Source: Pyrodictium abyssi (GTDB taxonomy: Archaea; Thermoproteota; Thermoprotei_A; Sulfolobales; Pyrodictiaceae). From it: DNA of 32,000 nucleotides. The notes under the pieces were generated by a model that made no database searches, was not told the DNA's origin, and saw only the letters and a list, made by a program, of their open reading frames with translations. The DNA is taken from assembly GCF_036323395.1 (NCBI RefSeq), contig NZ_AP028907.1, positions 660,001-692,000 on the forward strand, given 5' to 3'. Positions 25,225 through 25,451 of this stretch are shown here, piece by piece (position 1 is the stretch's first letter; every line of letters begins with the position of its first letter). The position numbers were made by a program, and so were the translations under genes.

Positions 25225-25301
25225 GGGCCGGTAGCTCAGCCTGGAAGAGCGCTCGGCTTGCACCCGAGAGGTCCCGGGTTCAAATCCCGGCCGGTCCACC
25301 A
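25225..25301 (+). tRNA. tRNA-Ala(UGC): tRNA-Ala (anticodon UGC), CCA encoded
   Basis: The acceptor stem GGGCCGG/CCGGTCC includes the G3:U70 alanine identity pair. D arm: TAGCTCAGCCTGGAAGAGC. Anticodon stem CTCGG/CCGAG with loop CTTGCAC (anticodon TGC). T arm: GGTTCAAATCC. Discriminator A followed by CCA at 25299-301. Confidence 0.95.
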
Positions 25302-25451
25302 CCCCCTATCCAGATCTCCTTCGCCTAGCTTCTCTCTACACTTCAGCCATTCCTCTACGATCCTTTCGAGAGGCCCAAGGTACCTTGTGACCAGCTTACC
25401 ATTCTCCCAGCCTTGCAGGTGGACAGAAAGCTTTCTCTGGCCATTATTCAT
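25236..25451 (-). pseudogene. SSV-type (partitioning) tyrosine integrase N-terminal fragment, Int(N), running antisense into the tRNA-Ala 3' half
   Basis: ORF track, 71 aa: MNNGQRKLSVHLQGWENGKLVTRYLGPLERIVEEWLKCREKLGEGDLDRG, then WWTGRDLNPGPLGCKPSALPG encoded by tRNA antisense. From memory, the SSV1 integrase N-terminus reads ...[25 protein letters not shown]...PPGFEPGTSG, with the same ENG-K-x-RY-GPL-VE-YLK pattern followed by tRNA-antisense residues. Confidence 0.7.

Follow-up and report, generated by a model that had tools for sequence, protein, structure and literature searches.

Probable relic of an SSV-type integration at a tRNA-Ala gene of Pyrodictium abyssi

What is a short open reading frame of unusual composition doing on the antisense strand of an intact tRNA gene in Pyrodictium abyssi, and if it is a piece of an integrase, what became of the rest of the element? 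The question arises from what is known of the type I ("suicidal") integrases. In these systems attP lies within the int gene, so recombination with a tRNA gene cuts int in two, leaving int(N) at one end of the integrated element and int(C) at the other. The enzyme's N-terminal portion serves multimerisation and the C-terminal part catalysis, and the split genes decay as pseudogenes, yet can recombine into hybrids (PMC8371274, PMC7253208). The first-pass annotation had seen in the P. abyssi locus the footprint of such an SSV-type integration. We found no paper in the literature describing this locus, and analysed it in a window of 32 kb (the whole stretch of DNA examined here, 32,000 nt).

The ORF antisense to tRNA-Ala

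ARAGORN detected one tRNA only in the 32-kb window, tRNA-Ala(UGC) (anticodon tgc in the DNA), at positions 25225-25301 on the plus strand. The gene is intact: it scored 68 bits against Rfam RF00005, and the alanine identity pair G3:U70 and an encoded CCA end could be read directly off the sequence. It would represent the integration target and the equivalent of attL. On the opposite strand, an ORF of 71 codons with an ATG start occupies positions 25236-25451 and encodes the sequence MNNGQRKLSVHLQGWENGKLVTRYLGPLERIVEEWLKCREKLGEGDLDRGWWTGRDLNPGPLGCKPSALPG. It consists of 50 unique codons (25302-25451) followed by 21 codons antisense to tRNA-Ala, and its stop codon lies inside the tRNA gene. The ORF and the tRNA overlap by exactly 21 codons, or 63 nt (25239-25301), just as the first-pass annotation had described it.

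The similarity of this ORF to SSV-type integrases was assessed along several routes. The Pfam profile PF07935 (SSV1_ORF_D-335) matched residues 16-54 with E=8.4e-4 and 20 bits, so that the window ORF alone scores just below the gathering cutoff of 22 bits. In a pairwise BLASTP comparison with the SSV1 integrase (sequence taken from NC_001338), SSV1 residues 29-55 aligned with ORF residues 15-43 with 15 identities in 29 positions (52%) and E=3e-7; the SSV1 peptide quoted in the first-pass annotation thus turned out to be a real one. When 5.8 billion proteins were searched with the ORF, 21 short homologues (70-119 aa) were obtained. All of them terminate in the tRNA-Ala antisense peptide WWTGRDLNPGPLGC[KQE]PSALP[GS] or in a variant form, and an Int(N) domain is recognisable in 18. 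The closest two, P0002 (75% identical) and P0003 (71%), score above the PF07935 cutoff, with 32.7 and 37.7 bits, respectively. Finally, a family HMM was built solely from the non-tRNA parts of the homologues and used in a six-frame search of the sequences assembled. Even without the tRNA-derived tail, the window ORF scored 42 bits (E=8e-11), and SSV1 Int itself scored 26 bits (E=8e-6). The PDB contained no solved structure matching the Int(N) profile, and a scan of viral contigs with the Int(N) alignment returned solely a tRNA-like match. These four independent lines (Pfam, SSV1 BLASTP, the database homologues and the tail-free HMM) establish, by homology, that the 50 unique residues correspond to the N-terminus of an SSV-type integrase. 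We therefore refer to the ORF as the int(N) stub. With significant similarity in the Pfam, BLASTP and HMM comparisons, the proposal of an SSV-type footprint at tRNA-Ala gained support.

The stub shows signs of decay. Translation of the DNA upstream of its ATG and comparison with P0002 and P0003 revealed a decayed 5' end of int(N) at 25452-25478 (minus strand): in-frame homology to the N-terminus of the relatives continues for about 8 codons and is then interrupted by a stop codon (25476-25478), which sits near the position where the relatives start. At the DNA level, the stub is 85% identical to L042 and 80.5% identical to L002 over about 220 nt, and the match with related int(N) genes tapers off shortly before the ATG. 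Within the stub, the nearly invariant YVY motif has become SVH, and the VVKR.KG motif is gone. Its family HMM score of 42 bits is the lowest among the near-complete copies, the others ranging from 52 to 99. Based on the stop codon near the ancestral start, the mutated YVY motif and the low score, the stub looks like a drifting pseudogene fragment that has lost its start. The exact ORF is absent from a protein collection which contains the P. abyssi proteome, and hence it apparently has not been annotated as a protein. Positions 25236-25451 can thus be flagged as a pseudogene fragment that apparently lies outside the public P. abyssi protein set.

The att segment in un-split integrase genes and related loci

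If the stub is one half of a split integrase, relatives that have not been split should carry the tRNA-derived segment inside the gene. This arrangement was observed. A metagenome contig (L055:729-1883) encodes an un-split integrase of 384 aa with an N-terminal PF07935 domain and a C-terminal PF16795 domain (archaeal phage integrase), and WWTGRDLNPGPLGCKP is embedded in frame between the two. In local alignments, the window tRNA matched the L055 int gene over 51 nt with 1 mismatch (window 25254-25304), and L027 over 48 nt exactly (window 25255-25302); the annotated integration site of SSV1 measures 44 nt. Alignment of the tRNA to these two genes defines the att-equivalent segment of the window at 25254-25304; it extends from the anticodon stem/loop through the CCA end and 3 nt further, and related int genes carry it in frame. 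In the un-split relatives L055 and L066, the in-frame tRNA-Ala segment is 48-70 nt long. L066 is located on contig Ga0256838_1000213, the same contig as L043, where an Int(N) 71% identical to that of the window abuts tRNA-Ala(GGC). The in-frame N-att-C integrase of L066 lies about 17 kb away from it, and the genes between the two include VirArc_Nuclease, DUF5658 and RHH proteins, and are fusellovirus-like. The predicted C-terminal halves of L055, L066 and L027 match PF16795 and can be aligned with SSV1 Int; in this alignment, columns of R, K and Y are invariant.

Since the un-split relatives carry the tRNA-Ala segment in frame, att lies inside int in this integrase lineage, as the first-pass annotation had supposed, and it corresponds to the 3' part of the tRNA into which the stub itself runs for 21 codons. 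The same annotation held that the SSV1 integrase likewise runs into tRNA-derived residues. That much stands, in the sense that a tRNA-derived att is read through in SSV1 too, but it is read in another frame, as ..PPGFEPGTS.. rather than as WWTGRDLNPGPLG.

Frame usage varies among the related loci as well. In L027 (2373-3492, Desulfurococcales MAG AUK150), an Int(N) (PF07935) is joined directly to an Int(C) (PF16795), out of frame. The Int(N) reads the tRNA-Ala att as ..VDRPGFEPGTS.., and the Int(C) reads the same att as WWTGRDLNPGPLG... The junction looks like two different elements integrated in tandem, and it shows that two integrase lineages use the same tRNA-Ala att in different frames. 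The same applies to L032. In L044 (metagenome contig Ga0256839_1027291), a full tRNA-Ala(UGC) is followed by an Int(N), and at a distance of 1.45 kb there is a partial tRNA copy, itself followed by a second Int(N)-like stub, which suggests nested or tandem relics at one tRNA.

We next consider how the stub is distributed. The 143-aa hypothetical gene (hyp143, 24730-25161, plus strand) to the left of the tRNA is chromosomal and syntenic with tRNA-Ala in relatives: its orthologues (48-53% identity by tblastn) lie directly upstream of tRNA-Ala in L022, L051, L060 and L070, and these loci can be regarded as orthologous to that of the window on account of this shared neighbour. Conservation at the tRNA itself is complete in L022, with 100% identity over window positions 25221-25306. 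After the tRNA, L022, L060 and L070 exhibit no Int(N) similarity, and in L051 no more than about 25 nt from the 3' end of int(N) are left. The absence of the ORF from orthologous loci indicates that it is insertion-like and is not a conserved gene; the possibility of a conserved small gene was rejected for this reason. A wider comparison gave the same sporadic pattern. The tRNA-Ala 3' part (43 nt) is identical in 36 GTDB species genomes, which include Desulfurococcales, Pyrodictiaceae, Acidilobaceae, Aeropyrum, Ignicoccus and Sulfolobales. The Int(N) HMM scored in 5 of these 36 loci (L011, L018, L027, L032 and L035), with a weaker trace detected by tblastn in L034.

These data also bear on a sceptical account, in which the stub is merely a fortuitous reading frame opposite a GC-rich tRNA, or else a true small gene of the host that has nothing to do with integrases. 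Frames antisense to tRNAs are often open, a second one being present here at 25165-25302, and the Pfam score of the stub falls under the gathering cutoff. Against this, the similarity resides in the part outside the tRNA and is significant by three independent routes, the un-split homologues are bona fide integrases, and the ORF is lacking from the orthologous loci. We therefore consider this account hardly credible.

Many such int(N) stubs exist in MAGs of Pyrodictiaceae and Desulfurococcales, and stubs at various stages of erosion occupy the same kind of site. Taken together with these metagenome-bin stubs, the window points to tRNA-Ala genes as recurrent landing sites for this integrase lineage. 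The first-pass annotation had considered an occurrence outside the best-known Sulfolobales hosts notable, which was an overstatement. Integrases of the SSV1 type have been documented among the Desulfurococcales, namely in AGV1 and in two Aeropyrum proviruses, APSV1 and APOV1 (bioRxiv 10.1101/2021.04.21.440749), as well as in Thermococcales and Archaeoglobales (PMC7253208), and one entry in Table 1 of a review reads "Sulfolobales (Desulfurococcales)" (PMC8371274). The occurrence in a high-GC member of the Pyrodictiaceae extends the known distribution and is no surprise.

The low-GC island and the missing end of the element

The compositionally foreign DNA is limited to the segment from 25302 to about 27080, some 1.7-1.8 kb. 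The stub has a GC content of 0.51 and the rest of the segment one of 0.41-0.43, against 0.62 for the window as a whole, so the segment is foreign by composition. Next to the stub lies a non-coding low-GC stretch (25452-26122, GC 0.43, about 670 nt), which had no detectable similarity to any relative locus compared or to the phage and plasmid collections. The sole gene of the island is PABY_07330 (26123-26902, plus strand), an intact foreign gene encoding 259 aa, 100% identical to P0022 (BES81166.1, hypothetical protein, Pyrodictium abyssi). It matches NCBIfam NF006328 (archaeal HTH + phosphoribosyltransferase) with E=4e-18 over profile positions 10-235 of 238, an E-value well below the equivalog cutoff of the model. 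Its GC3 is 0.37, compared to 0.67-0.83 in the neighbouring genes and about 0.8 in the genome. No solved structure in the PDB matched this phosphoribosyltransferase-like protein, and no other Pyrodictium homologue surfaced in our search. Homologues are found in ordinary chromosomal neighbourhoods in Hyperthermus butylicus, Nezhaarchaeales and other archaea, and none were found in the phage or plasmid collections.

On the right, the fine GC profile places the edge of the foreign DNA at approximately 27020-27100, where GC climbs from 0.39-0.45 to above 0.6. An att repeat is absent there, and an ORF at 27022-27330 (minus strand) reaches into the edge with its 3' end. This ORF was considered as a truncated form of the gene that follows HTH143 in L001, and the idea was rejected as there was no similarity. 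Beyond it lie a gene for a coiled-coil protein of 178 aa (cc178) and one for a winged-helix regulator of 143 aa (HTH143, Pfam HTH_20), together at 27330-28375 on the minus strand. The pair has host GC (0.63-0.64), and in L001 and L043 its homologues lie outside the element, on the chromosomal side. From about 27100 rightward, GC and GC3 are those of the host, and the genes present include aroE and those for a NikR-like regulator and a P-type ATPase.

Other features of the window deserve mention in their own right. The P-type (E1-E2) ATPase gene (31002-32000, plus strand) appears broken: the frame shifts around 31390-31410, and an in-frame stop immediately precedes the DKTGT phosphorylation motif. 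It could be either a pseudogene or the product of a sequencing error. Directly upstream of the tRNA locus is an operon for a Psr/Phs-type molybdopterin oxidoreductase (19947-24429, minus strand), which encodes a catalytic subunit of 847 aa, preceded by a leader of twin-arginine-like type, along with a 4Fe-4S subunit and an NrfD membrane subunit; a peptide-pattern scan of GTDB species genomes detected no close relative of the catalytic subunit. At 3791-4399 (minus strand), in a stretch of lower GC (0.52-0.56), there is a 202-aa ORF of the Pyrodictium cannula-protein family, with PDB matches to CanX (9h8b, E=1.4e-44) and CanA (7uii, E=2.6e-24), in keeping with DNA that comes from P. abyssi.

A complete SSV-type element would have, at its far end, an int(C) with PF16795 and a direct repeat of att. 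The window contains neither. With SSV1 Int and the Int(C) of L027 and L066 as tblastn queries, the 32-kb window returned nothing beyond the tRNA-derived peptide; the best other matches had E-values of 0.14-0.3. A weak match common to the queries, at 28343-28405 (E=0.14-0.3), is in frame with the start of cc178 and was judged to be due to chance. A second copy of att was sought in the 32-kb window by a repeat search, by a pattern for the tRNA 3' end allowing up to 3 mismatches, and by Smith-Waterman alignment, and none was found. The best Smith-Waterman scores were 21-24, compared to a mean of 22 and a maximum of 30 in shuffled controls. The island also lacks the Fuselloviridae hallmark genes looked for with PHROGs and Pfam (capsid VP1/VP3, DnaA-like ATPase, VirArc nuclease), and neither its DNA nor its protein had a match in the phage and plasmid collections. 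The absence of Int(C) and of an att repeat from the window identifies the locus as the remnant of an SSV-type system and not as a complete member. It is a truncated, one-sided relic in which only the Int(N) end survives, rather than an integrated element.

Would this conclusion change if the element had never been truncated? Its int(C) and attR could lie beyond position 32000, or elsewhere after an inversion or recombination between integrated elements, as in Thermococcus. Just 6.7 kb of the window lie to the right of the tRNA, and rearrangements between integrated elements have been documented (PMC8371274). However, from about 27100 the window has host composition and housekeeping-type genes, the cc178-HTH143 pair marks the chromosomal side in L001 and L043, and the compositionally foreign DNA extends over just 1.7 kb. 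Moreover, among the matches listed, at least 120 Int(C)-family proteins, none was named P. abyssi. We consider a distant int(C) end unlikely, and truncation of the element the better reading.

The composition of the island raises a different issue. Related complete elements have a GC content of 0.53-0.60 and share nothing with the island beyond the stub. The stub and the low-GC segment may thus differ in origin, given that the homologues of PABY_07330 are found in chromosomal contexts and are absent from phage and plasmid collections. In another account, the integration could have occurred in a different lineage, and a chromosomal segment with the stub and the low-GC gene could have been imported by homologous recombination anchored at the tRNA. 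A tRNA 3' part that is identical across many Desulfurococcales and Sulfolobales would offer such an anchor, and both the GC of the island, far below that of related elements, and the normally chromosomal location of PABY_07330 homologues would fit. Yet no second homology anchor was seen at the right edge, and a phosphoribosyltransferase-like gene is found beside tRNA-Ala in none of the loci compared. In addition, the closest int(N) relatives at the DNA level (80-85%) are on contigs which are not clearly low in GC (0.50 for L042 and 0.62 for L002 on the chromosomal side). Import of the whole segment thus strikes us as quite improbable.

A model for the history of the locus and its place among known systems

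The account that we favour, and consider highly probable, is an old SSV-type integration at tRNA-Ala(UGC), followed by one or more internal deletions that left the stub and a low-GC gene. In this model, a circular element, either a virus or a plasmid, that encoded a tyrosine integrase of the SSV type (type I, "suicidal") would have recombined into the 3' part of tRNA-Ala(UGC), in P. abyssi or an ancestor. The attP of the element, about 48-51 nt and identical in sequence to the stretch of the tRNA between the anticodon arm and the CCA end, both included, would have been situated inside the int frame. With attP in this position, integration would have made the tRNA whole again, with int(N) running antisense into it, and int(C) with a partial tRNA copy would have been placed at the far end of the element. 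One or more later deletions, starting within the element and reaching its right end or going beyond it, would have taken out int(C) and attR along with nearly all of the element. The DNA left over would consist of the int(N) stub, a non-coding stretch of about 670 nt and a single intact HTH-phosphoribosyltransferase-like gene. This remainder would have become fixed in the chromosome as a "gene capture", with the stub drifting as a pseudogene, and we propose that the stub has survived because it abuts an essential tRNA. We infer that the integration took place in this lineage, that the loss proceeded by deletion and not by rearrangement, and that PABY_07330 arrived with the same element. PABY_07330 is probably captured cargo, may represent a xenologous addition or replacement, and can be flagged as horizontally acquired.

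Could the remains be more than junk? The intact tRNA is still a usable att site, and therefore the int(C) and att of a newly integrating element would land directly upstream of the old int(N). Such a landing would create a hybrid full-length integrase gene; L066 and L027 show junctions of this kind, in frame in the former and out of frame in the latter. Another idea is that an expressed N-terminal fragment, corresponding to the multimerisation part, could block related integrases of incoming elements in a dominant-negative manner, which would amount to superinfection interference. Separately, PABY_07330 might have displaced a native orthologue. We advance these ideas as long shots.

The locus adds an SSV-type integration relic to Pyrodictium abyssi, which is among the most thermophilic cultured archaea. 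It offers an example of an element decaying from the inside, with a stub at an essential tRNA and a cargo gene persisting, and it leaves the known mechanism unchanged.

Among the systems to which the locus can be compared is the fusellovirus-like element of about 17 kb at tRNA-Ala(GGC) in L001 and in L043+L066, from hydrothermal metagenomes. Its Int(N) is 71% identical to that of the window and runs through att in the same frame, and its host DNA has a GC of about 0.64 and contains homologues of cc178 and HTH143. Unlike the relic in the window, this element is complete, with Int(C) and the VirArc_Nuclease, DUF5658 and RHH genes. It uses a different tRNA-Ala isoacceptor, and it has no DNA or genes in common with the island beyond int(N).

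A second comparison is with SSV1 Int (D-335) and the other type I integrases (Fuselloviridae, Guttaviridae, pRN/pSSVx-like, pTN3 and pT26-2). Shared with these are the PF07935 N-terminal domain, an att that is a copy of about 45-50 nt of the tRNA 3' part inside the int ORF, an int(N) left antisense into an intact tRNA, and un-split relatives which carry the PF16795 catalytic domain. The differences from SSV1 lie in the target, tRNA-Ala in the window and tRNA-Arg in SSV1, and in the att frame, WWTGRDLNPGPLG in the window lineage and PPGFEPGTS in SSV1. Those from the type I integrases in general concern the host, a member of the Pyrodictiaceae, and the state of preservation: the window retains int(N) alone, without the catalytic half, the att repeat or the element body.

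A third comparison is with the Aeropyrum pernix proviruses APSV1 and APOV1, and with the int(N)/int(C) "gene capture" relics reportedly described by She et al. between 2001 and 2004. In those cases both int halves and the element have been kept, whereas the window holds a one-sided stub of about 1.8 kb. What the P. abyssi locus has in common with them is the host group at order level, Desulfurococcales, the logic of the partitioned integrase, and the decay of an element whose cargo genes are kept beside a tRNA.
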